This document shows positions 34,640 through 57,638 of a stretch of DNA of 64,000 nt, in pieces; position 1 is the stretch's first letter; each line of letters starts with the position of its first letter. The stretch is taken from contig OZ220089.1 in the NCBI GenBank assembly GCA_964291625.2, positions 2,592,001 through 2,656,000 of the forward strand, in the 5' to 3' direction. Both the position numbers and the translations under genes were made by a program. This DNA comes from Candidatus Latescibacterota bacterium (GTDB lineage: Bacteria > Latescibacterota > UBA2968 > UBA8231). A model generated the notes under the pieces. It saw only the letters and a program-made list of their open reading frames with translations, was not told the origin of the DNA and searched no databases.

Positions 34640-34716
34640 GGGCGATTAGCTCAGCTGGTTAGAGTGCCTGCTTGACATGCAGGAGGTCGCTGGTTCAATT
34701 CCAGCATCGCCCACCA
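34640..34716 (+). tRNA. tRNA-Val (GAC)
   Basis: GGGCGAT/ATCGCCC acceptor stem, D arm AGCTCAGCTGGTTAGAG, anticodon arm CCTGC-TTGACAT-GCAGG, T arm GGTTCAATTCC and an encoded CCA end. Confidence 0.97.
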
Positions 34717-41914: not shown

Positions 41915-42367
41915 ATGCTCACAGCGTGGATCGTCGCGGGCGCGATCATGATCCTGCTGGAGTTGTTCCTGCCCGGAATGGTGCTCGGCTTTCTCGGGTC
42001 GAGCGCCCTGATCGTGGCCGCCCTCATCTGGCTGGGCTGGATCGACAGCCTGATCTCGGCCCTCACCACCTGGTTCATCCTCTCCCTCGTCCTGCTCCTG
42101 AGTCTGCGCGGCCTGTTCCTCCGCTTCGTCGGGGGCAGGTCCGAGCGCCAGTCCACCGACGAGGAGGAGGATGCCTACGGCACGGTCGTGGACGTGGTGG
42201 AGAGGATCTCACCGGACCGGGCGGGACGGATCCACTACCGGGACGCCACCTGGCAGGCGATCTGCCATGATCGCACCATCGAGGCCGGAGAGAAGGCGAT
42301 CCTCGCCTATCGCGAGAACCTCGCGTGGGTCGTCGAGCCCGCCGGGCTGGAGGAAAGCGATCCTTGA
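41915..42367 (+). CDS. NfeD family membrane protein
   Basis: N-terminal TM helices plus an OB-fold ('GRIHYRDATWQA'); immediately upstream of the SPFH genes. Confidence 0.85.
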   Translation: MLTAWIVAGAIMILLELFLPGMVLGFLGSSALIVAALIWLGWIDSLISALTTWFILSLVLLLSLRGLFLRFVGGRSERQSTDEEEDAYGTVVDVVERISPDRAGRIHYRDATWQAICHDRTIEAGEKAILAYRENLAWVVEPAGLEESDP

Positions 42368-42384
42368 AACGGGAGAGTTGAGCC

Positions 42385-43317
42385 ATGCCGCTTCTGACCT
42401 ACTTCACGATCCTGGTGCTGATCGCCCTGTTCGTGGTGCTCAAGACGTTCGTCGTCGTGCCCATGCGCGAGGCGGTCATCGTCGAGCGCCTGGGCAAGTT
42501 CCGGGCGGTCCTGCCGCCGGGGTTCCACTTCCTCATCCCCTTCTGCGACCGCATCGCCTACCGCCACGAGACCCGCGAGCAGGTGATCGACGTCCCCAGC
42601 CAGGCCTGCATCACCCGCGACAACATCCAGGTCGAGGTCGACGGTCTGGTCTACCTGCAGGTGCTCGACCCCGAGCGGGCCAGCTACGGCATCGAGGACT
42701 ACCGCCGCGCCAGCGTCAACCTGGCGCAGACGACGATGCGGGCCGAGATCGGCAAGCTGACCCTGGGCCAGTGCTTCTACGAGCGAGAGTCCCTGAACGA
42801 GACGATCGTGCAGGAGATCGACAAGGCGTCGAACCCCTGGGGCATCAAGGTGCTGCGCTACGAGCTGCGGAACATCACGCCCTCGGCCAACGTGGTGAAC
42901 ACCCTGGAGAAGCAGATGGAGGCGGAGCGCGAGAAGCGCGCCGAGATCACCCGCGCCGCCGCCGAGAAGGAGTCCACCATCAACCTCTCCGAGGGCGAGC
43001 GCCAGGAGGAGATCAACATCTCGGAGGGCGAGAAGCAGCGCCGGATCAACGTCGCCAAGGGCCGGGCGGAGGCGATCTCCATCATCGCCGAGGCCACCGC
43101 CGAGGGCACCGAGCGGATCGCCGCCGCGGTCCAGAAGGAAGGGGGGTCGGCGGCGCTGAAGATGCAGCTGGTGGAGGAGTACATCGAGATGATCAGCGAG
43201 ATCGCGGGAAAGTCCAACGTCTCCGTCGTGCCCCTGGAGCTGGCCCGGATCAAGGGCTTCTTCGAGGGGCTGGGCGAGGTCTCCGGTGGCACGCCGACCC
43301 AGAAGAAGGGAGCCTGA
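42385..43317 (+). CDS. SPFH/Band 7 (stomatin/paraslipin) protein
   Basis: 'VERLGKF', 'CITRDNIQVEVDG', 'LAQTTMR' and 'QMEAEREKRA'. Confidence 0.92.
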   Translation: MPLLTYFTILVLIALFVVLKTFVVVPMREAVIVERLGKFRAVLPPGFHFLIPFCDRIAYRHETREQVIDVPSQACITRDNIQVEVDGLVYLQVLDPERASYGIEDYRRASVNLAQTTMRAEIGKLTLGQCFYERESLNETIVQEIDKASNPWGIKVLRYELRNITPSANVVNTLEKQMEAEREKRAEITRAAAEKESTINLSEGERQEEINISEGEKQRRINVAKGRAEAISIIAEATAEGTERIAAAVQKEGGSAALKMQLVEEYIEMISEIAGKSNVSVVPLELARIKGFFEGLGEVSGGTPTQKKGA

Positions 43318-43318
43318 C

Positions 43319-44248
43319 ATGTCGACCGTCTTCGAGATCTTCAACTTCACCGTCTGGGGCGTTCTGCTCCTGGTCCTGATCGTCATGTTCCTGCGCTCGA
43401 TCCGGCTGGTGCCGACCCAGTCGGCGTACGTCGTCGAGCGGCTCGGCCAGTACTCCAGGACGCTGAATCCCGGTTTTCACGCCCTGGTGCCCTTCATCGA
43501 AAGGGTGGCCTTCATCCGCGACCTCAAGGAGGAGACCGTGGACGTGCCGCCCCAGGAGTGCTTCACCCGGGACGAGGTCCAGGTCGAGGTGGACGGCGTC
43601 CTCTACATCTCGGTCACCGACCCGGTGAAGGCCAGCTACGGGGTGACCAACTACTCCTTCGCCGCCATGCAACTGGCGCAGACGACGACCCGCTCCGTCA
43701 TCGGCACCCTCGAGCTCGACCGCACCTTCGAGGAGCGCGACCTGATCTCGGCCAAGGTCGTGGAGGTGCTGGAGAGGTCGGGGGAGACCTGGGGGATCCG
43801 CGTCCACCGCTACGAGATCAAGAACCTGTCGCCGCCGCCGACGGTGAAGGACGCCATGGAGAAGCAGGTCACCGCCGAGCGCGACCGCCGCGCCATCGTG
43901 GCCCAGTCGGAGGGCGACAAGCAGAGCCGCATCAACACCTCGGAGGGCCGGCGCCTGGAGCTGATCAACCGCTCGGAGGGCGAGATGCAGCGCACCATCA
44001 ACGAGGCCCAGGGCCAGGCCGAGGAGGTCCGGGCCATCGCCCACGCGACGGCCGAGTCGATCGAGAAGATCGCGGCCTCGATCAGCGTCGCCGGCGGCGC
44101 CCAGTCGGTGCACCTGCAGCTGGCGGAGCGCTACCTGAAGAGGCTGCGTGCTCTGGCCGACGGCAAGACGGACGTGCTCCTGCCCGTGGACCTGGCCAAC
44201 CCTCAGCAGCTGCTGGACGCCATCGAGTTGCGCGGGCCTGACGGATAG
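43319..44248 (+). CDS. Second SPFH/Band 7 (paraslipin) protein
   Basis: 'VVERLGQY', 'CFTRDEVQVEVDG', 'LAQTTTR' and 'QVTAERDRRA'. Confidence 0.92.
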   Translation: MSTVFEIFNFTVWGVLLLVLIVMFLRSIRLVPTQSAYVVERLGQYSRTLNPGFHALVPFIERVAFIRDLKEETVDVPPQECFTRDEVQVEVDGVLYISVTDPVKASYGVTNYSFAAMQLAQTTTRSVIGTLELDRTFEERDLISAKVVEVLERSGETWGIRVHRYEIKNLSPPPTVKDAMEKQVTAERDRRAIVAQSEGDKQSRINTSEGRRLELINRSEGEMQRTINEAQGQAEEVRAIAHATAESIEKIAASISVAGGAQSVHLQLAERYLKRLRALADGKTDVLLPVDLANPQQLLDAIELRGPDG

Positions 44249-44340
44249 CGCTGTCGGCCGCGGGGCCACGACTCGACACCACTCCCGCGGGCAGGGCGCC
44301 CCCGGCGGTCGGCGGGTGGGGAGCCGCCAGGGGCTGACGG

Positions 44341-47300
44341 TCACTGGTCGGAGAGTCCGACCAGCAGCCGCGAGTACTCGTCCTCCAGCGGATCGACCTC
44401 GCCCCGGAGGGCCGCCCGCGCGAAGACGATGCCCGGCCGCTCGACACGGCGGGCCCGGGCCAGCACGCCGAAACCCTCCGTCCCGGAGCCCCGCTGGCCC
44501 TCGCCGAGGGACTCGAACTCCGACAGGACGCGGAACAGGCCGCGCCGGGCGCCGACCACCCTGGCCAGCACCTCGGGCGCGGTGAGCCCCTCCCGCCAGG
44601 AGCGGCGGACCCCGAGGAGCCGGCCCTCGATGTCACGCACGAGTCCGCCCGGCCCCACCAGGGTCGTGAGCTGATGGACCGTGGCCCGGGCGCCGCTGTG
44701 ACACAGCAGGGCGGCGGCGCCAAGGTCGTCGTCGTCGTAGTCGCGGAAGCCGGCGATAGTCGCCAGGGCCTCCTCGGCGCAGGCCTGCCACTGCGGCGCG
44801 TCGTCCCCTTCCGGAAGGGCGGGCAGGTCGAGGGTGTGGCCGATGAAGGGGCCGATGGAGGCGCCTTCCCCGCGGGCGGCTTCGAACCCCAGCCGCATCA
44901 GTTCCGCGGCCACGCCCAGGGCCGCCCGCTCCCCCTCGGCGGCCAGCACCTCCCGCAGCAGCCTCGAGGCCGCCGCCCGCGTGAGGAGTCCGCCCTCGAG
45001 TTCCGGTTCCCGCCCCGCGGCCTCCGCGATCCTCTTCCGGCCCGCCGCCGAGCGGCCGAGGCAGGCGAGCCCGAAGAGGGCGTCCATGCCCGGCAGCAGG
45101 TCCTCCAGGAGATCGGGATCCCGGGCCAGGTGGGCGGCGATGGACAGCCGCTCGCGGGTCTCGCCCTGGGCCATCTCCGTGAGGGGGAGGAAGACGGCCG
45201 CCTGGTCGCCGTCGAAGTCGACGTCCAGCAGGCCGCAGGCCAGGGGGCAGAGGCGGATGGCATGGCCCGGGACCGGCAGGGGCCGGAAGGCCAGCATCGC
45301 CGTGGGGCTGACGGATGGAGCGTGATTGAGGATGATCCAGTGGGCCTCCATGGTGGCGGCGAGGGCGGCCCCGGCCTCGGAGAAGCGCCTGCTGACCGCT
45401 TCGGGATCCCCCAACTCGCGCGCCGCCAGCGGCCCGAAGAGGCTCCAGGCCATCTCCTCCGGCAGACCGATCCGGTCGGCCGCCAGGTCGCTTCCGGGGA
45501 CGATTACGGCGCGGCCGCTGAAGAGCACATTCTCATCCCGCCCCGGCTCCGGGGCCGGCGCCAGTCCGTCGTACAGGGCCGACACGGCGGCGGCCAGGTC
45601 GTCCCGGGCCGCGGCTGCCAGGGGCTCGGGAGCCTTATCCTTCAGCAGCCGCGCGAGCCGGGCGTTGGCGGCGGCGACCCCGGGATACCCGGCGGCCTCC
45701 TCCGCGTTGCAGACCTCGGACAGGGTCTCCCCCGGCAGCCACGGGTGGGGGACGCCGGCGGCCAGGGACAGCGTCGGCCCCGGGTGTGGTTCCAGCCGGA
45801 AGGCGACGCCCCCGGCGCCGGCTTCGGCGCGGATTCCGGCCTGCGCCAGCCCAGCCGCCAGGGCGGCGAAGGCGGGTGAGGGGGTGGTCGCCGGCTCGAC
45901 CGGTCCGGCGGCGGCCCTGCCGGCCAGGGAACCCGCGTCGCCGCGCCGGGTGGAGCAGGTGTTGGTCAGCTCCCGGATCACCGCGGGTGCGCCGGCCTCG
46001 GCCAAGGCCCGCACCTCCATCACCCCCAGGCGCTGGCCCCTGTCGTCCGGGTGGACGGCGGCCCTCAGCTTCGGGCGCGCGCGGTGCAGCGTGCAGCCCC
46101 AGTAGACCCATCCGGCCGTGGCCGGCCGCCGCAGGGGCGTGCCGCCGAGGGTCAGCCTGGTCATGCCGTCGGCGCGCAGGCCGCTGCCCCGAAGCAGGTC
46201 CCGCAGCTGCTCGTCCGAGGGCGCCTCGAAGGGCGGCACCACGGCGGGCTCCCCCCGCAGGAGGGCCGCGTGGCCGAGGGCGGCCTCCCGGACCAGCCCC
46301 ATGACCCAGCGGGACGGGATGCCCGAGAAGCTGAAGACCAGCTCCACGGGGGTGCCGTCCGGCAGCCGCGGCATCTCCTCGTCGGGCGCCACCCGCGACA
46401 CGACGCCCTTGACCCCGTGCCGGTTGCTGAGCTTGTCGCCGGCTTCGAGGGGGTCCGGGCAGGCGAGCTTGCGGGCGCCGGACCGGCTGACCAGCAAGGC
46501 GTCGTCGAAAGCGTCGCCGTCCCAGGAGACCAGGGCCGTGAGGAGGTTCCGGCCGCACCAGAAGTCCGGCGCCGTCGGCTCGAGGCCGGTCCGCACCAGG
46601 GCCGGCTCCCTCTCGGCGGGCGCCAGCCACTGGCGCATCATGTTGGCGCCCATGAGCACGCGGTTGCCGTCGTCGTTCTCGAGGAAGGGGACGCAGGCGC
46701 CGGAGATGCCCAGTCCCTCCGCGGGCTGCGCGTCGACGATCACCAGCCGGCGGCCTCGGATCTCCGCTCCCCGGGAAATCGTCAGGACGCGGCCGATGTT
46801 CGGTCCTTCCGGGGTCTCGAAGGGGCAGGTGCGGCCGAAGTGGGCCGGGGTGAACACCTCCTGGCGGCCGGGGACCAGGAGCCGGCGCAGGTGCGCGGCC
46901 CGGGACAGCCAGTTGGTGTCGTCGAGCCGCTCGCCGCAGGAGGCCAGGAAGGCCTGGAACCAGTCCCCCAGAGGCGCCAGGGTCCGCAGGAGGGACCCGT
47001 CGAGGGGGGTGTGCTCGGGGACCTGGCCCAGGCGGGCCTCGATGAAGGTGGAGAGCCGGTCGCCGAGACAGCCGATGCGCGCCTCGGCCAGGTCGTCGCG
47101 GTCGGCCACGGGAGGCACGACCAGCTCGACGCCGCCCGAGGGGTCGCGCTCCCCCCCGGGGATCGTCCTCGGAGGCGGCAGGCTGGGACTGGCCTCCGCC
47201 ACCCGGAAGACGCCCTCTTCGTCCGGCGCGGGCAGCCCGTCGTATTCGACCTCGAAGTCCCCCTCGACCGAGGGTCCGCCGAGGACGATCCGGCAGGCGT

Positions 47301-47427
47301 GCTCGCCGGCCCCTTCGGCGCGGTAGCTGCTCACCCCCAGCCGTGCGGCCAGCAGCTCGGGAAGGCGGCGGTGCAGGAAGTCGTCGAAGGAGGCCTTGTG
47401 CCACGGGTTGGCCGGCGTCGTTCTCAT
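44341..47427 (-). CDS. Miniature single-chain RNA polymerase-like protein (fused, truncated RpoB+RpoC; 1028 aa)
   Basis: RpoB motifs appear in order: HFGRTCPFETPEGPNIG, PFLENDDGNRVLMGANMMRQ, WDGDAFDDALLVS, GDKLSNRHGVKGVVS, GIPSR, GQRLGVMEV. RpoC motifs follow in order: clamp helices, FSGRAVIVPG, LNHAP, DVDFDGDQ, SGARA, REGL..GARRGL. Confidence 0.9.
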   Translation of the reverse strand: MRTTPANPWHKASFDDFLHRRLPELLAARLGVSSYRAEGAGEHACRIVLGGPSVEGDFEVEYDGLPAPDEEGVFRVAEASPSLPPPRTIPGGERDPSGGVELVVPPVADRDDLAEARIGCLGDRLSTFIEARLGQVPEHTPLDGSLLRTLAPLGDWFQAFLASCGERLDDTNWLSRAAHLRRLLVPGRQEVFTPAHFGRTCPFETPEGPNIGRVLTISRGAEIRGRRLVIVDAQPAEGLGISGACVPFLENDDGNRVLMGANMMRQWLAPAEREPALVRTGLEPTAPDFWCGRNLLTALVSWDGDAFDDALLVSRSGARKLACPDPLEAGDKLSNRHGVKGVVSRVAPDEEMPRLPDGTPVELVFSFSGIPSRWVMGLVREAALGHAALLRGEPAVVPPFEAPSDEQLRDLLRGSGLRADGMTRLTLGGTPLRRPATAGWVYWGCTLHRARPKLRAAVHPDDRGQRLGVMEVRALAEAGAPAVIRELTNTCSTRRGDAGSLAGRAAAGPVEPATTPSPAFAALAAGLAQAGIRAEAGAGGVAFRLEPHPGPTLSLAAGVPHPWLPGETLSEVCNAEEAAGYPGVAAANARLARLLKDKAPEPLAAAARDDLAAAVSALYDGLAPAPEPGRDENVLFSGRAVIVPGSDLAADRIGLPEEMAWSLFGPLAARELGDPEAVSRRFSEAGAALAATMEAHWIILNHAPSVSPTAMLAFRPLPVPGHAIRLCPLACGLLDVDFDGDQAAVFLPLTEMAQGETRERLSIAAHLARDPDLLEDLLPGMDALFGLACLGRSAAGRKRIAEAAGREPELEGGLLTRAAASRLLREVLAAEGERAALGVAAELMRLGFEAARGEGASIGPFIGHTLDLPALPEGDDAPQWQACAEEALATIAGFRDYDDDDLGAAALLCHSGARATVHQLTTLVGPGGLVRDIEGRLLGVRRSWREGLTAPEVLARVVGARRGLFRVLSEFESLGEGQRGSGTEGFGVLARARRVERPGIVFARAALRGEVDPLEDEYSRLLVGLSDQ

Positions 47428-47428
47428 G

Positions 47429-48034
47429 TCAGTCTTCCTCCCAGTCGATCCCCAGCTCGCGCCAGGATCGAGCGATCTGTTTGCGGGCGTGGTGGATCCG
47501 GGACTTCACCGTGCCCTCGGGTATGCCCAGCTCCAAAGCGGCCTGGCGAGTGTTCATGTTGCCGTCGTAGATCAGCCGGATGACCTTGCGCCGGTCCTCC
47601 GGCAGGCGCGTCACCAGGCCGCGCAGCAGCCGCCGGCGCTCCGCCAGGGCCAGGACCTCGTCGGGCGGAAGGGTGGAGGCGTCGATCATCCATTCCGGCA
47701 CCCGCTCCTCCCTCCCCTCCTCTCCCTCCATGGCGGGGGGAGGCTGCAGCGGCTGCTCGTGACGGCGCCGGACCGAGCGGATGTGGTTGAGGGCCAGGTT
47801 CGTGGCGATGCGCAGCAGCCAGGCGAGCAGGGGGCCCTCGCCCTTCCACTGTCCGGCGCGGTGCCACAGACGGAGGAAGACCTCCTGACCGACGTCGGCG
47901 GCGTCCTCGTCATGGCGATGGATGCGCCGCAGGTGACGCTGCACATCGGCGCGGTAGCGCTCGAAGAGCTTGGCGAAGTCCTCCTGCCGCCCCTCGATCA
48001 CCCCGCGGACCAGCTCCTCGTCGCTCTTCCCCAT
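47429..48034 (-). CDS. ECF (group 4) RNA polymerase sigma factor
   Basis: Region 2 'DAADVGQEVFLRLW..WLLRIATNLALN' and region 4 'LPEDRRKVIRL..AALELGIPEGTVKSRIHHAR'. Confidence 0.93.
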   Translation of the reverse strand: MGKSDEELVRGVIEGRQEDFAKLFERYRADVQRHLRRIHRHDEDAADVGQEVFLRLWHRAGQWKGEGPLLAWLLRIATNLALNHIRSVRRRHEQPLQPPPAMEGEEGREERVPEWMIDASTLPPDEVLALAERRRLLRGLVTRLPEDRRKVIRLIYDGNMNTRQAALELGIPEGTVKSRIHHARKQIARSWRELGIDWEED

Positions 48035-48048
48035 CCGGCCTCCACCCG

Positions 48049-48077
48049 GTTGACACCGCCGGCGCCTGCCGGGTTCA
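48049..48077 (-). promoter_or_regulatory. Putative ECF-sigma (autoregulatory) promoter
   Basis: The minus strand reads TGAACCC-N16-GTCAAC, then GGAGG, then the sigma ATG 14 nt after the -10 element. Confidence 0.6.
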
Positions 48078-49421
48078 CCGGGCCGGGGGAGCCGGTTCCG
48101 CGATGCAGTAGAGGTGGTGTCGTCCCCGCAGATAGAGCTCGCCGCCGGCCAGGGCCGCCGAGGCGCTGAAGCTGTCGTCGAGGTGGTTGACGGCCAGGAC
48201 GGCGGGGGCGTCCGCGTGGCTGACGACCACGGTGGCGCCGTTGCGGCCGGTGACGTAGACGCGGCCGGCGGCGGCGACGGGAGAGGCGAAGACCCGGTCG
48301 AGGCCCTTCAACCGCATCGGCCCCGGCCGGTCCCCCCCGGTCCGGGCGTCGACGCGGGTGAGGATGTTCTGGAAGTGGCGGACGAAGTAGAGGGCGTCGC
48401 CGTAGAGCAGGAGGGAGGGGACGTACGGCGCCCCCCGGGTGCGGCTCCAGGCGGCCCGGCGGCTGCGGCTGTCCTCGCCCTCGGAGGGTTGGAGGGGAAT
48501 CGCCAGCACCGCCTGCCGGTCGTAGCTGCTCCCCGCGAAGACGAGGCCGAAGCCGGCCACCGGCGTGGCGACCACGTTCTCCACCGAGAGCCCCGGACAC
48601 TCCCAGATCCTGCGGCCGTCGGCGAGGTCGTAGCCGCGCACTCCCCCGGAGCCGCTGACCACGACCTGGGGCCGGCCGCCGGCCTCGGTGACGATGGGGG
48701 TGGTCCAGGACGAGGCCGGTGCGCGGGGGCTCTTCCAGCGGAGGGCGCCCGTCCCCTTGTCGAAGGCGGCGAGGAAGGACTCCCCCTCGTGGTCCCAATT
48801 GACGATCAGAGCCCCGCCGGCGACCGCCGGCGAGCTGCCTTCGCCGTGGCCGTGGAGCGGCTCCAGGGGGCCGAGGTCCAACTCCCACAGCAGCTCCCCA
48901 TCGAGATCGAGGCCGTAGATCCCGTGGGAGCCGAAGGAGGCGACCAGGTGCTCGCCGTCGGTCACCGCCGAGGCGGAGGCCAGGCTCGCCGTGTAGTGGC
49001 CGCCGGCGCGGGGCAGGGCCTCGCGCACCACCCGCTGCCAGAGGACCTGTCCCGTGCGGCGGTCCAGGGCGAGGACGACGAACCGGTGGCGGTGAGTGAC
49101 CGGCCGTTCGTCGTGGCTGCCCGGCAGGCCGCTGAGCTTCGGACGCAGAGGTTCGCCGTAGGGGACGGCGGCGGTGATGAAGATCCGGTCGCCCCAGACC
49201 ACCGGCGTCGAGTGGCCGCCGCCGGGAAGCGCCGCCTTCCAGCGCAGGTTGCGGGTCTCGCTCCACTCGAGCGGTGGATCGGCGTGGGGTGCGGCGCCGG
49301 TGCCCAGGGGGCCGCGCCAGGCGGGCCAGAAGCGGTCCCCATCGGTCTCCGGCTCGCCGGAGGCCGCGGTCAGCAGGCAGCAGACCACCGCGAGGGCCGC
49401 GGATGGGCCCATGCGGACCAT
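48075..49421 (-). CDS. PQQ-like / BamB-like beta-propeller secreted protein
   Basis: Signal peptide; 'WPAWRGP', 'GHSTPVVWGDRIF', 'SWTTP' and 'FASPV'. Confidence 0.87.
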   Translation of the reverse strand: MVRMGPSAALAVVCCLLTAASGEPETDGDRFWPAWRGPLGTGAAPHADPPLEWSETRNLRWKAALPGGGHSTPVVWGDRIFITAAVPYGEPLRPKLSGLPGSHDERPVTHRHRFVVLALDRRTGQVLWQRVVREALPRAGGHYTASLASASAVTDGEHLVASFGSHGIYGLDLDGELLWELDLGPLEPLHGHGEGSSPAVAGGALIVNWDHEGESFLAAFDKGTGALRWKSPRAPASSWTTPIVTEAGGRPQVVVSGSGGVRGYDLADGRRIWECPGLSVENVVATPVAGFGLVFAGSSYDRQAVLAIPLQPSEGEDSRSRRAAWSRTRGAPYVPSLLLYGDALYFVRHFQNILTRVDARTGGDRPGPMRLKGLDRVFASPVAAAGRVYVTGRNGATVVVSHADAPAVLAVNHLDDSFSASAALAGGELYLRGRHHLYCIAEPAPPAR

Positions 49422-49423
49422 TC

Positions 49424-51520
49424 TCAGACCACGGGGGGCGGGTCCGCTCTCCGTGCGGGCTCGGGATCGGCCAGGCGCAACAGGTCCCGCCGGGCGGAGG
49501 ACTGCGCCACCCGCACCCGCAGGACCTGGCCGGGCGCGGCCTGCAGCCGCTGCCCCCGGGGGGCGGGGACGTGGCACGCCACCGGGCCCTCGGGCAGCAG
49601 GACCAGGTGGCCGGGCCCGCGCGGCTCGGCGACCACGCACTGCAGCCGCGCCTTGTCCCCAAGGCTTTCGAGCCATTTGAGCGTCCAGTAGCGGCGGCTG
49701 CAGCGGCGCACGCGCTCCGCCGTCTCCCGGGCCTCGCGCGTCTCCAGCAGGATGCGCTCCAGGTCCTCTGCCGTCAGGGGGTCGGAGCGCCGGCCCGCGA
49801 TCCACAGCAGCTGCCGCTGCATGGCCAGGTCGACGTAGCTCGACAGGGGGCCGGCGCCCGGAGCGCAGGCCGGAAGTCCGAGACCCGCGTGGGGGGCGGG
49901 GGACGTCCCGAGCCTCTCGCGCGGGGTCCCGCTCTCGTGCAGATGGGTGCGGAGGACCTCGGCCGACGTGGAGTCGGCGGCGAGGGGGACGCCGGACTCG
50001 GCGGGCGGGGCCTCGCGCACCGCGTGGATCGCGGGCGCCGCGTCGCGGCAGAGGCGGGCGATCGCTTCGGCGGCCAGCAGGCCCAGCTCCGAGTCGACGC
50101 GATCCTCAACCCCCTCCGCCGCCGGCTCCGCCCGTCCTTGACGGACCGCGATCCGGTCGGCGGGATGCAGTTGCTGCCAGGCCCCCGCCCGCCGCCGCCT
50201 CTGCCGCCGCCCCTCGGCCAGCGCCGCCAGGCGGCGCACCGGGGCGCTGCCCTCGCCGGCCGCGAGCGCCGCACGGGGCCGGGCGCGGCCCAGGGACAGC
50301 CGCACCTTCTGCGGCGCCAGCTCCCGGTCCAGGCGCACGCTCAGGATCAGGACGGGTCGGGCCTCGTCCGCCGTCAGCCGGCAGGCGTCGGTCAGATCCG
50401 GCGGCAGCATCGGGATCTCCCGCTCCAGCAGGCGCACGCTGAGTCCCCGGGCGGCGGCTTCCTGATCGATGGCGCCGCCGTCCTCCACCCACAGGGCCGG
50501 CACGGCCATGTGGATGTCGACGACGGTGTGGCCGAGCAGGCTCCGGCGGAGACGGTAGGCCCGCTGGCCGCAGCGGGTGACGCAGAGGCCCGCGCCCCAG
50601 CGTCGGCGGCCTGCCCACCCAGCGAGGACGGCCGAGGGGTCGAGGCCGCGCGCCGCTCTCTTCGCCGCCTCGGAGAATGCCACGGGCAGGCCGAGGCGGT
50701 GCAGCTCCAGGTTCTCGTCGGCGGACCAGTGACCCAGGCGGACGAGGACGTCGAAGGCGGCGTGGCTTCCGTGCAGGTTGGCAGCCTTCATCAGCCGGGC
50801 GGCCTCCGCGCTCGCCTCGCCCAGGGCGGCGGCCTCGAGCAGGTCCACCGCCGAGTCCGCCCCGACGGGACGGGGGCTGGATGGGTGCCCGTCGGCGACC
50901 CTTCGGACCCACGAGGCCAGCTCGGTCTGGCGGCCTTCCTCCCTCTCCTCGCGGGCCGAGGATGCCTCGATCCCCTCTACCGCCGCCGGGGAGCGGGGGC
51001 GCCAGCGGGCGCCGTGGCGCTCGAACCGGTGGCCGCGCCACAGGGCCCGGAGCATGCCGGCCCGGCGGCTGGCGTTCGGATCGCCGGGGTCGTGGAGCTC
51101 GACCAGATCGTCGAGCCGCCACTCGCCGCCCTCCGGGCCCCCCTCGAGAGCGACCTGCCAGAGGGCCGTGAGATCGACGGCGCCGCGGGCCTGCTCGCGC
51201 CTCCGGTCGATGCGGCGGAGGTCGGCCAGCGCCATCTCGGGGGTGTGCATCGACACGTACTCCGGGGATACGTCCACCACCTTGTCGCGGCGGAGGTGGA
51301 GCCGGCGGCCGTCGACGCCGACGACGTCGTAGCCCCTGCGGTTCTGCGGATCCCGGGCGAGGTAGCCGCACTGAAGCTGGCCGCCGCGGCGGAACTCGAG
51401 CACCGCGCCGGCGCGCTCGAGAGCGGGCTTCGCGCCGCGTTCGGCCTGCACCAGGCGCGCCACCTCCCGGCGGGAGGCGTCGTCGAGGGAGTTGGTCAGA
51501 TGTCGCGGCCAGCGGACCAT
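49424..51520 (-). CDS. RNB-domain (RNase II/R-like) protein with a degenerate active site
   Basis: 'IDQEAAARGLSV.L.EREIPMLP', 'HAGLGL....GPLSSYVDLAMQRQL', 'RRYW.LKWL' and a C-terminal S1-like region. The acidic catalytic DxxxxxDxDD motif is not visible. The start is the ATG at 51520, or the GTG at 51544. Confidence 0.72.
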   Translation of the reverse strand: MVRWPRHLTNSLDDASRREVARLVQAERGAKPALERAGAVLEFRRGGQLQCGYLARDPQNRRGYDVVGVDGRRLHLRRDKVVDVSPEYVSMHTPEMALADLRRIDRRREQARGAVDLTALWQVALEGGPEGGEWRLDDLVELHDPGDPNASRRAGMLRALWRGHRFERHGARWRPRSPAAVEGIEASSAREEREEGRQTELASWVRRVADGHPSSPRPVGADSAVDLLEAAALGEASAEAARLMKAANLHGSHAAFDVLVRLGHWSADENLELHRLGLPVAFSEAAKRAARGLDPSAVLAGWAGRRRWGAGLCVTRCGQRAYRLRRSLLGHTVVDIHMAVPALWVEDGGAIDQEAAARGLSVRLLEREIPMLPPDLTDACRLTADEARPVLILSVRLDRELAPQKVRLSLGRARPRAALAAGEGSAPVRRLAALAEGRRQRRRRAGAWQQLHPADRIAVRQGRAEPAAEGVEDRVDSELGLLAAEAIARLCRDAAPAIHAVREAPPAESGVPLAADSTSAEVLRTHLHESGTPRERLGTSPAPHAGLGLPACAPGAGPLSSYVDLAMQRQLLWIAGRRSDPLTAEDLERILLETREARETAERVRRCSRRYWTLKWLESLGDKARLQCVVAEPRGPGHLVLLPEGPVACHVPAPRGQRLQAAPGQVLRVRVAQSSARRDLLRLADPEPARRADPPPVV

Positions 51521-51528
51521 GGTCCCTG

Positions 51529-51580
51529 AGGGTATCCTCTCCACTTCGACAGTGTCAACCGCAATCCGAGGGCCTATAAT
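51529..51580. promoter_or_regulatory. Overlapping divergent sigma70-like promoters
   Basis: The plus strand has GTGTCA-N17-TATAAT (51552-51580) before the 51595 gene. The minus strand has TTGACA-N18-TACCCT (51558-51529), 8 nt before the RNB ATG. Confidence 0.45.
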
Positions 51581-52231: not shown

Positions 52232-53302
52232 ATGACCCAGGTCCTGCCTCCCCTGCCGCGCATCACGCCGCGCGGCGTCCTCCTGACGGCGGCGGCCTGG
52301 CTGCTCTACACCGTCGCCTTCGAGATCTACTTCGCCGTCATGCTGGGGGCTCCCCTCGGCGCCTCCCTTCCAGGCCGCGCCATCGGCAGCGCCTGGATGG
52401 GGCTCTACAGCGTGCCCGTCTGGCTGGTCGTCATCCGGGGCCTCGACCGGTCCGCCTGGGGCTGGCGGGTCCTGGCCCACGCGATCCTCTGCCCGCTGTA
52501 CGTGGCCGCCAACTGGTACACCATGGACCTCATCTCCCGATGGATGTACGGCGCGCCGATCGCGCCCGCGGACCTGGTGATCTGGCAGTTGCTGGGGTTC
52601 GTGTTCACCTACATGGTGCAGTTCGGGCTGTTCCACATCGTCCGGGCCGGGCAGAAACTGCGCTGGCGTGAGAGCCGGCAGGCGGCGCTGGAGCGCCTGC
52701 TGCGCGAGCAGCAGCTGGCGGTCCTGCGGTCGCAGCTGAACCCGCACTTCCTGTTCAACAGCCTGAACACGATCAGCGCCGTCCTCGGCCAGGACGCCGA
52801 GAAGGCGCGCCGGCTGATCGCCCGACTGGGAGACGTGCTGCGCTACGCCGTCGATTCCGTGGAGCGGGATACGGTTTCCCTGGCCGAGGAGTGGGCGCTG
52901 ACGCGCAGCTACCTCGAGGTCGAGCAGGCGCGTCTCGGGGAGCGGCTCGAGGTGCTGGCGGAGATGGCCGGTCCTGTCCTCACGTCCGAGGTGCCTCCCA
53001 TGATCCTGCAGCCGCTGGTGGAGAACGCCATCGTCCACGGCGTCGCTCCCCTTCCCGAGGGCGGGCGCCTGCGGGTCTCGGCGGATCAGGCGGCGGACCG
53101 GGTGGTGCTCGCGGTGAGCAACACCGGGGCGGTCGTTGCGGGCGATGCCGCCCTCTGGGAGTCCCGGGGCACCGCCCTCAGGAACATCCGGACCCGCCTG
53201 CGGACCCTGTACGGGGACGGGGCGGAGTTGCGGTTGTCGTCACCGGCCGCGGGTGGATTCGAGGCGGTGGTTCGCCTGCCGGCCAGGGGCTCGCATGACT
53301 GA
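52232..53302 (+). CDS. LytS-family sensor histidine kinase
   Basis: TM N-terminus; 'LRSQLNPHFLFNSLNTI' and 'ILQPLVENAIVHG'. Confidence 0.92.
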   Translation: MTQVLPPLPRITPRGVLLTAAAWLLYTVAFEIYFAVMLGAPLGASLPGRAIGSAWMGLYSVPVWLVVIRGLDRSAWGWRVLAHAILCPLYVAANWYTMDLISRWMYGAPIAPADLVIWQLLGFVFTYMVQFGLFHIVRAGQKLRWRESRQAALERLLREQQLAVLRSQLNPHFLFNSLNTISAVLGQDAEKARRLIARLGDVLRYAVDSVERDTVSLAEEWALTRSYLEVEQARLGERLEVLAEMAGPVLTSEVPPMILQPLVENAIVHGVAPLPEGGRLRVSADQAADRVVLAVSNTGAVVAGDAALWESRGTALRNIRTRLRTLYGDGAELRLSSPAAGGFEAVVRLPARGSHD

Positions 53303-54011
53303 GGAGACCACCGCTCTCATCGCCGACGACGAGGCCCCCGCCCGCGAATTGCTGGCCGAGTATCTCGGGCGCTTCCCGCAGATCCGCATCGTGGCGGTCT
53401 GCGCCGACGGGGCCCAGGCCGTGCGAGAGATCGACCGCCACCGGCCCTCCCTGGCCTTCCTCGACATCCACATGCCGGCGCCGACCGGTCTGGAGGTGCT
53501 GACGCGGGTCCGCCACCTCCCCCGGGTGGTCTTTACCACCGCTCACCCCGAGTTCGCCGTCCAGGCCTTCGAGGTCAACGCCGTCGACTACCTGCTGAAG
53601 CCGTACGACTTCGAGCGCTTCGTGGCCGCCGTCGACAAGGCCCTGAAGGCGTCCCACGGCAGCGAGCTGGATCGCCTGGTCTCCCTGCTTCACGATGCTC
53701 GGAGGCGGGAGGCGCCCGGACAGCTCTTCCTCAAGGTTTCGGGGAGAATCGTCGCCGTTGCCGTCGACCAGGTCCGCTGGCTCCAGGCCGAGGGCGACTA
53801 CACCCGCGTCCACACCCGGGGCGGGTCCCACTTCGTCAGCGAGGGTCTGGGCGGCCTGGAGGCGCGGCTCGACCCCGGCCGGTTCATGCGCGTCCACCGG
53901 TCCGCCATAGTCGCCATCGAGGCCCTCCGGGAGCTGACCAGCGACGGCGACGGAGGCTACGTGGCCCGCCTCGACGACGACACCGAGGTGAGGGTCTCGC
54001 GAACCCACGCG

Positions 54012-54038
<27 letters not shown>
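53295..54038 (+). CDS. LytTR-family response regulator
   Basis: REC 'IADDE..FLDIHMP..FTTA..DYLLKP' and LytTR 'FMRVHRSAIV..VSR'. Confidence 0.93.
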
Positions 54039-55804
<1,766 letters not shown>

Positions 55805-55955: not shown

Positions 55956-57638
55956 GTGCTGAGACTGATCGCCTTCTTCCTCGAGCACCGCGGGCGGCGC
56001 CGGGGCATCGTGCGGCTCCTGTGGGTGCTCTCCGCCTTCGTCCTCACCATCATCCTCTACAGTGTCCTCTTCCACCTGCTCATGCTCGAGGAGGGCAAGT
56101 ACTTCTCCTGGTTCGACGGGGTGTACTGGACGCTCACCACGATGTCCACCACAGGCTTCGGGGACATCACCTTCGAGGCCGTTCCCGGGCGGGTCTTCAC
56201 CGCAATCGTGCTCGTCAGCGGCACGCTCTTCATGCTGATCCTGCTGCCCCTCACCTTCCTGCAGTTCTTCTGGATGCCGTACATGGAGGCCCAGGCCCTG
56301 AGGCGCCGCCCGCGCAAGCTCGACGCCGGCACCCGCGACCACGTCATCCTGGTGCAGCACGACGCCATGTCGATCGCCCTGATCGAACGGCTCGTGCAGT
56401 TCCAGTACTCGTACGTGCTGATCGAGCCCGACCCTGCCGAGGCCGCGCGCCTGGCCGACGAGGGGATCAACGTGATCCTCGGCGACCTCGACGATCCCAG
56501 GACCTACCGGGGGGCGCGGGTGGCCGATGCCGCCCTCGTGGTCGCCGCCCGCTCCGACGAGATGAACACGCAGATCGCCTCGACGGTGCGCGCCATCTCC
56601 GAGAGCACGCCGATCATCGGCACCGCCGACCTGACGGCCTCGGTGGACATTCTCGAGCTGGCGGGGTGCGACCACGTCCTGCAGCTGGGCGACCTGCTGG
56701 GCGAGTCCCTGGCGCGGCGCACCACGGCGGGAGACGCCATGGCCCACGTCATCGGCGAGTTCGGCCAGCTGCTGATCGCCGAGGCGACGACGACGAACAC
56801 GCCCATCGTCGGCCAGACCCTGGTCGAGGCGGACCTGCGCAGGAAGGTGGGGATCCACGTGATCGGCGTCTGGGAGCGGGGGCAGTTCCAGCCGGCGCGG
56901 CCGGAGACCCGCATCACCACCCAGACCGTCCTCGTCCTGGCCGCCGACCAGGGCCAGCTCTACCGCTACAACAGCCTTTTCGCCATCTACAACCAGTCCG
57001 CAGAGCCGGTGATCATCATCGGCGCCGGCCGTGTCGGCCGCGCCGTGGCCCGCTCCCTGGAGGAGCGCAACGTCGACTACTGCATCGTCGAGCGCGATCC
57101 GGAGGCCGCCGGCGACGCCGGAAAGATGGTGGAGGGCTCAGCGGCGGAGCTGGAGGTGTTGGAGGAGGCCGGCATCCGGACGGCGCCGGCCGCGGTCCTC
57201 ACCACCCGGGACGACGACACCAACGTCTACCTGGCCATCTACTGCCGAAAGCTGCGGCCCGACATCCAGATCATCGCCCGGGCCAACCAGGAGCGGAACG
57301 TGCAGACCCTGCACCGGGCCGGCACCGACTTCGTCATGTCCTATCCGTCCATGGGGGCGCGGGAGATCACCAACCAGCTGCAGCGAAGCAGCACCCTCAC
57401 CATCGCCGAGGGACTGGGGGTGCTCCGGCTGCCGGTGCCCCGGGGCCTGGGCGGCACCAGTATTGCGGGGTCGGAGATCCGTCCGCGGACCGGGTGCTCG
57501 GTGGTGGCGGTCAGCCGGGACGGCTCGACCAGCGTCAACCCGGATCCGACCGAGGCCCTGCCGCCGGGCGGCGAGATGATCCTGATCGCCACGGCCGAGG
57601 GCGAGCGCCTCTTCCTCAAGGAGTTCGGCGGGGACTGA
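55956..57638 (+). CDS. Potassium channel protein (Ion_trans_2 plus tandem TrkA-N/TrkA-C RCK domains)
   Basis: Pore signature 'TTMSTTGFGD' and RCK 'IIGAGRVG'. Confidence 0.9.
   Translation: MLRLIAFFLEHRGRRRGIVRLLWVLSAFVLTIILYSVLFHLLMLEEGKYFSWFDGVYWTLTTMSTTGFGDITFEAVPGRVFTAIVLVSGTLFMLILLPLTFLQFFWMPYMEAQALRRRPRKLDAGTRDHVILVQHDAMSIALIERLVQFQYSYVLIEPDPAEAARLADEGINVILGDLDDPRTYRGARVADAALVVAARSDEMNTQIASTVRAISESTPIIGTADLTASVDILELAGCDHVLQLGDLLGESLARRTTAGDAMAHVIGEFGQLLIAEATTTNTPIVGQTLVEADLRRKVGIHVIGVWERGQFQPARPETRITTQTVLVLAADQGQLYRYNSLFAIYNQSAEPVIIIGAGRVGRAVARSLEERNVDYCIVERDPEAAGDAGKMVEGSAAELEVLEEAGIRTAPAAVLTTRDDDTNVYLAIYCRKLRPDIQIIARANQERNVQTLHRAGTDFVMSYPSMGAREITNQLQRSSTLTIAEGLGVLRLPVPRGLGGTSIAGSEIRPRTGCSVVAVSRDGSTSVNPDPTEALPPGGEMILIATAEGERLFLKEFGGD

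Follow-up and report, generated by a model that had tools for sequence, protein, structure and literature searches.

Introduction

According to the textbook view, as summarized in a paper on YonO (PMC5467207), bacteria transcribe with one five-subunit core RNA polymerase (RNAP) of ∼400 kDa. The known exceptions are viral, plasmid-borne or paralogs of a single subunit. Here we describe a chromosomal gene family of another kind, represented in a 64,000-nt stretch of contig OZ220089.1 (positions 2,592,001 to 2,656,000) from a Candidatus Latescibacterota bacterium (assembly GCA_964291625.2), this whole stretch being referred to below as the window. The gene encodes a 1028-aa protein (the mini-polymerase) that fuses drastically shortened versions of both large RNAP subunits, beta and beta', and it follows directly upon a gene for a sigma factor of the extracytoplasmic function (ECF) type. 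The family is vertically inherited and evolves under purifying selection.

By description, the nearest analogue in design is Orf6 of the yeast cytoplasmic linear killer plasmid pGKL2, presented as a 982-aa Rpb2::Rpb1 fusion with about half of the sequence deleted (PMC2919709). As far as that description goes, both proteins join the two large subunits in the same order (Rpb2/beta, then Rpb1/beta') within ∼1000 residues. In contrast to the mini-polymerase, a chromosomally encoded protein of bacterial type with an ECF sigma factor as partner, Orf6 is portrayed as eukaryote-derived, plasmid-borne, cytoplasmic and sigma-less.

YonO, encoded by the SPbeta prophage of B. subtilis, is reported to be a trigger-loop-less single-chain two-barrel enzyme acting as an efficient and processive DNA-dependent RNAP (PMC5467207). 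As described, it resembles the mini-polymerase in being a single chain of ∼100 kDa with two barrels and without trigger loop, flap, rudder or lobe; the lid is said to be absent from YonO as well (PMC5467207). On the other hand, YonO is described as sharing only a few catalytic residues with cellular RNAPs and is prophage-encoded, whereas the mini-polymerase has a dedicated sigma factor and no prophage around it. Since ∼600 of its residues can be aligned to beta and beta' and no mobile element is present, we do not classify the mini-polymerase as YonO-like. The phage RNAPs (crAss-like gp66, P23-45 gp64/gp96 and the multisubunit enzymes of jumbo phages) are likewise described as simplified and devoid of small subunits (PMC10770324, PMC7824862), but these two-barrel enzymes are, by the same descriptions, viral, highly divergent and used with no sigma factor. 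More than one form of polymerase is also reported for Nonomuraea with its duplicated rpoB (PMC5431353), where a full-length beta paralog is said to join the normal core; here we deal with a separate, fused and minimal candidate enzyme.

The layout of the locus recalls yet another system, the operons of ECF sigma and anti-sigma factors, which have in common with it a promoter of the GAAC...GTC type, autoregulated in those operons and presumably so here, the sigma gene in first place and a translationally coupled partner. Unlike in those operons, the partner here does not have an anti-sigma domain but is a 1028-aa polymerase homolog; the paper on the reclassification of ECF sigma factors (PMC7826278) makes in its main text no mention of a polymerase-subunit partner or of Gemmatimonad. 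The surveys of the two-barrel superfamily (PMC2919709, PMC7281927, PMC7824862, PMC10770324) cover, in their main texts, cellular, killer-plasmid, viral, YonO/RdRP-like (RNA-dependent RNA polymerase-like) and PolD members, and no bacterial sigma-linked mini fusion appears there. Literature searches over main texts yielded no description of a sigma-linked mini-polymerase family either. It is apparently undescribed so far, in agreement with an initial interpretation of the window made from its letters alone (the sequence-only reading), which knew of no described family of this kind.

Results and Discussion

Identification of a fused minimal beta-beta' protein

The mini-polymerase is encoded by a single uninterrupted ATG-initiated open reading frame (ORF) of 1028 codons with no internal stop, in a region of 70–75% G+C (Table 1). 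The claim of the sequence-only reading that it carries blocks of both RNAP large subunits holds at a level incompatible with chance: the Pfam analysis detected Rpb2_3 at residues 168–222 (E 6e-8), Rpb2_6 at residues 327–443 (E 8e-26, covering only positions 221–341 of the 373-position profile) and Rpb1_2 at residues 695–759 (E 7e-16). The closest sequence relatives among PDB entries are, by phmmer, bacterial beta (6e-41) and beta' (2e-26) chains, and the best matches among PHROGs are families of beta and beta' length (2e-40 and 1e-26). None of the PADLOC defence model families (0 matches) recognized either the mini-polymerase or the sigma factor.

The protein is not a canonical RpoB or RpoC, nor a fusion of the two as known from other bacteria. 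Its NCBIfam scores amount to 154.7 bits for rpoB (TIGR02013, cut-off 801), 99.1 bits for rpoC (TIGR02386, cut-off 963) and 148.7 bits for the fusion model NF011417 (cut-off 4632), while no dedicated model for a fused mini-polymerase is present in Pfam or NCBIfam. The full canonical domain set comprises protrusion, lobe and flap for beta, and clamp core/zinc domain, rudder, trigger loop and jaw for beta'; of all this only Rpb2_3, a part of Rpb2_6 and Rpb1_2 were matched in Pfam. The natural full-length rpoBC fusions (NF011417, NF007172) extend over ∼2840–2890 positions, as compared to 1028 residues here. Separate canonical rpoB (1802 bits) and rpoC (1776 bits) genes are adjacent to each other on the other contig of this 5.9-Mb two-contig genome, and their products total ∼2560 aa. 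Unlike the canonical genes, the mini-polymerase gene is located outside of an rpoBC operon, belongs to a separate clade and is accessory, and its product is devoid of lobe/protrusion, flap, beta' N-terminus, rudder, trigger loop and jaw. The exclusion from the canonical group thus follows from the score cut-offs, the domain set, the operon context and the tree position. What the mini-polymerase has in common with canonical beta and beta' and with the natural fusions is the fold, the beta-then-beta' order and the catalytic motifs; the fork region, clamp helices, switch 2, F-loop and bridge helix of beta/beta' are also there.

The integrity of the gene is illustrated by a 3796-nt Logan contig produced by an independent assembler (from a run that may be the source sample), which reproduces positions 44525–48320, including the beta/beta' junction, with zero differences.

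An AlphaFold2 model computed with the 55-row family alignment shows one compact fold with a mean predicted local distance difference test (pLDDT) score of 90.5 and a predicted template modelling (pTM) score of 0.88, where only residues 85–97 and 977–981 are poorly predicted. A Foldseek search of the PDB returned 1034 matches at E ≤0.001, with bacterial and plastid RNAP chains at the top (E 8e-23 for solved beta and 2e-20 for solved beta' chains), whereas among viral models only giant-virus and phage RNAP subunits were matched, at E 3e-17 or worse and template modelling (TM) scores of 0.3 or lower. The confident model and these matches suggest that both double-psi barrels are packed into one active-site module, an assembly on which the sequence-only reading had depended. 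By its predicted fold the mini-polymerase belongs to the two-barrel RNAP superfamily.

Retained and deleted parts

The anatomy of the protein was established by aligning a profile of 55 homologs to the genome's own beta and beta'. The domain names (lobe, flap, rudder, trigger loop etc.) are the customary ones for the respective segments of these two subunits. Overall, ∼40% of beta plus beta' is kept in one chain.

The first 124 residues constitute a family-specific domain, whose profile always finds it at the protein N-terminus. It stands in for own beta 1–465 (protrusion/lobe), which has no counterpart, and includes a disordered genus-specific insert (residues 85–97, judging from low pLDDT and the alignments). 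In an hhalign comparison, its PQPDxxGxFxVDGxxRVVVP block showed a weak similarity (probability 26%, E 7e-4) to own beta 114–141, LPIMTEEGTFVINGAERVVVS, and because of this link the domain may be a remnant of the beta N-terminus. The LDDTNWLSRAAHLRR/HFGRTCPFETPEGPNIG stretch that follows (profile positions 108–203) corresponds to own beta 466–573, PFLENDDGNRVLMGANMMRQ (210–265) to own beta 644–699 with its GANMxRQ block, and GRNLLTALVSWDGDAFDDALLVS (257–295) to own beta 778–816 with the ED block, which reads FDD here. The flap (own beta 817–1072, ∼257 residues) has no counterpart and is replaced by ∼13 residues, after which the region from GDKLSNRHGVKG to GQRLGVMEVRAL and on through the beta C-terminus (305–519) matches own beta 1073–1301. 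The beta blocks named in the sequence-only reading are thus found in PDB beta chains by phmmer and in own beta by the family profile, save for DDLAEARI, which lies just before the first significant block and is itself uncovered.

The beta' half begins abruptly. Own beta' 1–286 has no counterpart, its place being taken by ∼40 residues of hairpins with the invariant HPW; profile positions 520–558 have no canonical equivalent, and DSSP assigns strands at residues 532–573. From the clamp helices onwards the alignment to own beta' is restored, as that reading had proposed for all blocks up to GARRGL. The clamp helices, FSGRAVIVPG...GLPEEMA and NHAP...DVDFDGDQ (profile positions 559–740) correspond to own beta' 287–503, with the canonical NADFDGDQ reading DVDFDGDQ and with an alignment gap that shortens the rudder, between clamp helices and switch 2, by ∼25 residues. 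In the AlphaFold model, the clamp helices are located at residues 581–596 and 601–622; in canonical RNAP, sigma region 2 docks there. A 26-residue helix (950–975) occupies the expected place of the bridge helix and is followed in the model by only ∼50 residues, own beta' 805–1317 (trigger loop and jaw) being without a counterpart.

The similarity of the C-terminus to the last conserved beta' segment, also part of the sequence-only reading, is weakly supported: a one-sequence BLASTP comparison aligned VFARAALRGEVDPLEDEYSRLLVG with own beta' 1318–1341 (E 0.024, 33% identity), and a profile of this tail matches most canonical beta' sequences at the corresponding C-terminal site, each match being individually non-significant (E 0.05–3).

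Table 1. Coordinates of the mini-polymerase module and its parts within the window.
Feature	Position	Strand	Basis
Mini-polymerase coding sequence (P0001), complete, 1028 aa, fused beta-beta'	44341..47427	(-)	ORF list, translation, Pfam, AlphaFold, Foldseek
Family-specific N-terminal domain, aa 1-124; invariant W9, H10, S13, P66, P68, G72, F74	47056..47427	(-)	alignments
Beta fork/rifampicin-region block, aa 125-225; LDDTNWLSRAAHLRR, PFETPEGPNIG	46753..47055	(-)	profile, Pfam Rpb2_3
Beta blocks GANMMRQ and FDD (canonical ED) motif, aa 230-315	46483..46740	(-)	family profile
Beta double-psi barrel, second half, and beta C-terminus, aa 326-520	45868..46452	(-)	profile, Pfam Rpb2_6
GDKLSNRHGVK with catalytic lysines K332 and K340, and R336	46408..46440	(-)	55/55 homologs
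Junction and short beta-hairpin segment, aa 521-580; invariant H561-P562-W563	45688..45867	(-)	profile, DSSP, alignment
Beta' clamp helices (coiled coil), aa 581-622	45562..45687	(-)	profile 559 onwards = own beta' 287 onwards (NDLYRRVINRNNRLKKL...)
Switch 2 (FSGRAVIVPG) and beta' double-psi barrel, aa 633-760	45148..45531	(-)	profile, Pfam Rpb1_2
DFDGD catalytic aspartate triad, aa 737-741	45205..45219	(-)	55/55 homologs
F-loop and bridge helix, aa 898-975; SGARA...REGL...GARRGL	44503..44736	(-)	profile 859-962 = own beta' 692-804
C-terminal segment, aa 1001-1024, weakly like the last beta' block	44356..44427	(-)	BLASTP
ECF-type sigma gene, 201 aa	47429..48034	(-)	Pfam Sigma70_r2 2e-14, Sigma70_r4_2 9e-14
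Conserved promoter resembling the ECF type, TGAACC-N13-CGGTGTC, with 17 nt between it and the sigma ATG, then GGAGG ribosome-binding site	48052..48077	(-)	motif comparison

Conservation of the active site

The position that the sequence-only reading gave for the DFDGD motif proved correct by coordinate arithmetic, and so did the expectation that it would be conserved. D737, D739 and D741 of the one barrel and K332 and K340 of the other are invariant in 55/55 aligned homologs, as are F738, G740, G330, D331, R336, G338, G260, N262, M263, R265, E207, G208 and F636. S637, G638 and R639 are found in 53/55 and D309 in 52/55, and the bridge-helix start, fork region and switch 2 are near-invariant in the same set. 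On a larger scale, the three aspartates are kept in 120/121 proteins (the 120 best matches and the query), two of which read DHDGD, the sole exception being an N-terminal fragment; among 65 divergent full-length representatives, 62 preserve D[FHYW]DGD. The three others (P0150, P0177 and P0272) match the family profile end-to-end at 930–1180 bits, with DFDGN, GDR and a K340-to-T replacement in P0150, GFSAQ and K340 replaced by F in P0177 (seen on 4 contigs), and GFGGL and K340 replaced by A in P0272 (for which a second cluster member exists). Judging from these replacements, the three proteins may be pseudo-polymerases.

Family distribution, selection and origin

The word-indexed search, in which 8000 candidates were scored and the 120 best examined, revealed matches of 43–91% identity, 117 of them with a length of 1001–1092 aa and 3 being fragments. 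The mini-polymerase is therefore represented by more than 100 full-length homologs in independent assemblies, of the same architecture and with no stops inside any match. Nearly all of them are unnamed or annotated as 'hypothetical protein'; the named sources are metagenome-assembled genomes (MAGs) of Gemmatimonadaceae/Gemmatimonadota, Hydrogenedentes, Armatimonadetes and Chloroflexota. In large genome searches, where only two candidates per genome were scored, the mini-polymerase was detected in 65 of 168 genomes from the phylum to which the window belongs, in 4 out of 9 other members of the genus and in 2 of 301 Chloroflexota genomes, with none in 301 Acidobacteriota and 5 single genomes (a weak negative).

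The profile of the N-terminal domain retrieved 194 representatives (E ≤0.001) from 1.84 billion representatives clustered at 50% identity; the best 150 of these 194 comprise 65 proteins of 900–1150 aa, 84 shorter ones, which for the most part are fragments from contigs, and a 2289-aa repeat protein that is unrelated. In the ESM Atlas, two clusters of mini-polymerase size have 73 and 135 members. Fused Rpb2_6+Rpb1_2 clusters occur there at 1221, 1330, 1453, 1609, 1625, 1675 and 1787 aa as well, one of these being auto-named with an inorganic pyrophosphatase domain, and metagenomes may hold a wider range of shortened fused beta-beta' proteins. Contigs 90–99% alike across all 11 kb compared were found in runs labelled as sponge metagenomes (RNA libraries X2 and X22, DNA run X3), which places relatives in samples so labelled.

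Rates of substitution were estimated by the Nei-Gojobori method for the window gene against two congeners and for the congener pair (locus L090, with an N-terminus reading WHR, was left out). The ratio of nonsynonymous to synonymous rates (dN/dS) of the mini-polymerase is 0.36, 0.36 and 0.38 in the three genome pairs, with the lowest values (0.27–0.32) over residues 301–750, which hold both barrels; the sigma gene shows 0.32–0.40. The rpoC gene of the same genomes has a dN/dS of 0.016–0.031 at similar dS (0.11–0.25). The mini-polymerase gene is thus under purifying selection that is ∼15 times more relaxed than that on the essential enzyme, and the equality of its dS with that of rpoC points to vertical descent within the genus.

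These data bear directly on the reading of the gene as a decaying relic, an rpoB/rpoC assembly chimera, or a phage or plasmid gene caught in a chromosome. Two observations would suit it, the patchy occurrence even within the genus and a dN/dS far above that of rpoC. Nevertheless, the probability of such an origin is next to nil and we consider it ruled out by the uniform architecture and intact frames over more than 100 independent assemblies, by a dN/dS below 1, by the contig of an independent assembler that crosses the junction, and by the collections of mobile elements: 50,697 phage records and 72,556 plasmid records contain no member (the hits being canonical rpoB/rpoC, none covering 80% of the query), and a scan of IMG/VR yielded none. 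Neither Pfam analysis of the neighbouring proteins nor ORF clustering revealed an integrase or phage gene near the mini-polymerase, and the absence of ribosomal-protein or phage context noted from the letters alone also stands; dS equal to that of rpoC is a further argument against a mobile gene.

A quick unrooted maximum likelihood tree was built on 435 columns from 65 canonical beta+beta' pairs of 13 phyla, drawn from 80 rpoB-rpoC loci, together with 28 rows of the 55-row family alignment. The family forms one clade (support of 100 in the Shimodaira-Hasegawa-like approximate likelihood ratio test, SH-aLRT) on a branch of 1.02 + 1.21 (∼2.2) substitutions per site; this clade lies outside every sampled phylum and was not seen to branch within bacterial beta/beta' diversity, where long-branch effects are possible. 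The canonical pair encoded by the same genome clusters with Bacteroidota and Ignavibacteriota, and these separate positions indicate that the mini-polymerase did not arise by recent copying of the resident rpoBC. The sequence-only reading had proposed a second, minimal, rpoBC-derived polymerase or polymerase-like scaffold. None of the refutation tests named in that reading told against it. A second minimal protein of this kind is supported and may be derived from rpoBC, although in the tree its family is a long separate branch nested in no sampled bacterial lineage; the triad-less members keep the scaffold version alive.

The sigma factor and its promoter

The sigma protein is composed of regions 2 and 4 only and scores 92.9 bits with TIGR02937, well above the cut-off (42.9), while no specific subfamily model was passed. 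Its TGA stop codon is separated by one base from the ATG of the polymerase, and GGAGG-like sites precede both starts. The pairing is conserved: a homolog of this sigma gene is found upstream of the polymerase in 24 of 25 loci across two phyla, namely in 17 of the 18 loci with 8-kb flanks, both Chloroflexota, all four metagenome loci with upstream DNA and the window itself, not all of these loci being independent for either sigma or promoter, since several come from one genus. In the two Chloroflexota, the adjacent sigma proteins score 269 and 225 bits as compared to ∼95 for the other ECF sigma factors of these genomes. The linker between the two regions holds a PxWxxD motif, with P113 and W115 invariant and D118 kept in ≥90% of 15 aligned sequences. 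All-against-all ORF clustering of the neighbourhoods revealed, apart from sigma, no neighbour common to different genera and no other anti-sigma candidate conserved beside sigma.

The 640-aa protein P0286, from a 2.1-kb contig, could be mistaken for a sigma-polymerase fusion, as sigma region 2 is followed by 60 low-sense residues in place of region 4 and then by the polymerase N-terminus. This is probably explained more simply by a frameshift read-through over the 1-nt junction, and the case was not counted.

Upstream of the sigma gene, the promoter motif is present with at most one mismatch in 21 of the 24 sigma-bearing loci, with an invariant spacer and in most loci 17–26 nt before the sigma start. 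It is exact in 14 and has one mismatch in 3 of the 18 flanked loci; one of the two Chloroflexota has it with one mismatch, and three of the four metagenome loci with one mismatch or fewer. Scans for sigma-70 promoters and terminators produced nothing at 43900–48400. Contigs from RNA libraries (X2 and X22) cover the operon, one piece (47123–48185) crossing the sigma/polymerase junction.

Five other genomes contain 1–2 exact copies of the motif each, as compared to 0 for a reversed control; no convincing genes were found downstream of the extra exact copies in four of the other genomes. One genome (G010) has two identical exact motifs (C1:244168-244193 and 1476025-1476050; loci L138 and L139) inside a repeated element of at least ∼1 kb, with no clear downstream gene found for either. 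In the genome of the window (G000), the only one-mismatch copy just upstream (32 nt) of a gene start is at C1:1845208-1845233 (+); that gene, whose 648-aa product has an N-terminus resembling a signal peptide, could be a second target or a chance occurrence. A contig of a related strain (run X3) has a 14-nt insertion, GCCGGGTTCACCGG, behind position 48067; the inserted letters duplicate the region of the −35 box in the promoter of sigma.

Functional interpretation

What the window contains is a conserved, selected, chromosomal module made of a promoter, an ECF sigma gene and a minimal fused beta-beta' gene whose product has an intact active site, and this module is conserved across genera and in two phyla. 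The explanation that best combines these facts, to which we would give even chances, is a minimal polymerase that is active, belongs to a two-gene module switching itself on and probably employs the sigma factor encoded there. The first element taken by itself, that the mini-polymerase is an active polymerase, is fairly probable; the use of the adjacent sigma falls slightly short of an even chance.

The sigma factor would activate its own promoter and make the operon a positive-feedback switch, which is how a conserved ECF-type promoter in front of an ECF sigma gene is usually interpreted. The mini-polymerase would synthesize RNA on DNA templates without alpha, omega and trigger loop, as YonO does; we infer polymerase function because YonO transcribes without the same parts and because switch 2 is kept. 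Together with the funnel, switch 2 is said to mark the DNA-dependent members of the superfamily (as stated in PMC2919709). In a more speculative step, sigma region 2 might dock on the retained clamp helices and serve as the initiation factor of the mini-polymerase, and the two proteins would then make up a transcription system of their own, apart from the host core enzyme. The sigma link is favored by the fact that the clamp coiled-coil and switch 2 were kept while most peripheral domains were shed. A complex prediction for sigma and polymerase residues 286–1028 gave 0.26 and 0.22 (against a mark of 0.32) and, having been run without controls, was counted neither way.

A number of observations weigh against this explanation. 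The exact promoter motif occurs only once in the 5.9-Mb genome, and its one-mismatch copies are not enriched (10 versus 2 and 7 for two control patterns), so that there is no sign of a regulon served by a private holoenzyme. In one genome (G144) the polymerase occurs with no cognate sigma anywhere, the best sigma match scoring 83 bits. The depth of coverage is flat, RNA-library and DNA runs covering the operon and its neighbours equally. The ∼15-fold excess of dN/dS over rpoC belongs here as well, and so does the existence of three full-length divergent members that lost the aspartate triad and K340, in view of which a scaffold role for the protein is conceivable. The window protein itself has D735 (N in 36/55 homologs) and H702 (R in 48/55) at positions that we take to be those of E. 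coli N458 and R425, residues reading the ribose of the nucleoside triphosphate. Finally, the flap is deleted and yet the −35/−10 geometry is that of an ordinary ECF promoter, which fits a sigma factor working with the host core.

The last point leads to an alternative in which an ordinary ECF sigma serves the host core and the mini-polymerase is a regulated output acting without sigma, perhaps as an RNA synthase that needs no promoter or is templated by single strands or RNA (for primers, small RNAs, or stress and defence), like other stripped-down two-barrel enzymes. The classical −35 and −10 boxes with their invariant 13-nt spacer, and a sigma factor whose regions 2 and 4 match normally and which passes TIGR02937, speak for such a scheme. 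It would also account for the operon being the only evident target of a promoter unique in the genome, for G144 keeping the polymerase without a cognate sigma, and for the lack of the lobe, jaw, rudder and flap, parts that deal with duplex DNA and RNA exit. The flap in particular is described for cellular RNAP as an SBHM (sandwich-barrel hybrid motif) insert in the beta barrel that binds sigma (region 4) or TFIIB (PMC7824862), and this docking place of sigma region 4 is absent from the mini-polymerase. We nevertheless regard this alternative as rather unlikely, since the clamp coiled-coil, to which sigma region 2 mainly docks, survived the peripheral losses, the sigma-polymerase adjacency was maintained in nearly all loci of two phyla, and the linker motif of the sigma (P113, W115, D118) is unusually conserved. 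The retention of switch 2, in the light of its reported association with DNA-dependent enzymes (PMC2919709), is another argument in the same direction.

In a different scheme, the protein is a core-enzyme mimic occupying the anti-sigma slot, which would bind the sigma via the clamp helices and buffer or time it, catalysis being secondary or vestigial. An autoregulated ECF sigma gene followed by a co-translated partner is the layout of a sigma/anti-sigma pair, no other anti-sigma candidate is conserved beside the sigma, and the clamp helices are indeed there; moreover, the triad- and K340-less members at 930–1180 bits imply that a non-catalytic role can keep the protein intact. It is hard to reconcile with this scheme that the triad persists in 62/65 divergent and 120/121 closer members, that the lysines, R265, fork region, switch 2 and bridge-helix start are near-invariant, and that constraint within the protein is strongest in the barrels. 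A 1000-aa decoy would also be costly compared to typical anti-sigma domains, and no anti-sigma domain (ASD/ZAS or other known families) was detected in the 1028-aa protein by Pfam at E up to 1. For the family as a whole we find this scheme quite improbable; at least a part of it may have a core-mimic (sigma-buffering) role.

Returning to the active minimal polymerase, its most far-reaching form, in which the sigma and the 1028-aa protein make a complete private two-polypeptide (∼135 kDa) sigma-dependent transcription machine of cellular ancestry, is attractive and at the same time rather doubtful. Were it true, no smaller holoenzyme of the multisubunit type would be known, this one dispensing with alpha, omega, flap and trigger loop. 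It would provide a channel that amplifies itself in isolation from the host core, such as a backup without most target surfaces of RNAP-directed antibiotics and phage inhibitors, and the members that are catalytically dead would have branched off from it as regulators.

If active, the mini-polymerase would amount to a natural experiment on which parts of the cellular enzyme catalysis requires, and possibly also which ones initiation with sigma requires, and it would offer a compact orthogonal set of polymerase, sigma and promoter for synthetic biology. It would also raise the question of what role a second polymerase plays in bacteria, many of them from runs labelled as sponge metagenomes. The catalytically dead relatives are a possible case of a polymerase turned regulator.

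Neighbouring genes

In two loci of the family an ABC exporter gene (fused permease and ATPase, ∼590 aa) is located between the sigma and polymerase genes (L127:5933-7693, plus strand; L129:11115-12908, minus strand), and in a third genome such a gene is located a few kb upstream (L124:1512-3196, plus strand). The exporter may be a cargo or target of the module.

In the window, two genes on the minus strand are located upstream of the module: 48075-49805, encoding a PQQ_2/BamB-like beta-propeller, and 49424-51544, encoding an RNB-domain RNase II/R-like protein with a double helix-turn-helix (HTH) domain. Their longest ORFs overlap by ∼380 nt, an arrangement conserved only within the genus; because of this overlap the propeller gene probably starts later, at the signal-peptide-like MVRMGPSAALAVVCCLL. 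On the other side, at 41915-44248 (+), an NfeD gene and two tandem SPFH/Band-7 genes are convergent with the mini-polymerase gene, the last of them ending 93 nt from its stop. Further away, translations suggest a probable histidine kinase and response regulator pair (52232-54038, plus strand), a probable family-1 beta-glucosidase (54248-55765, minus strand) and a probable TrkA-type potassium channel protein (55956-57638, plus strand). The only Rfam match in the window is a tRNA gene at 34640-34713 (+).

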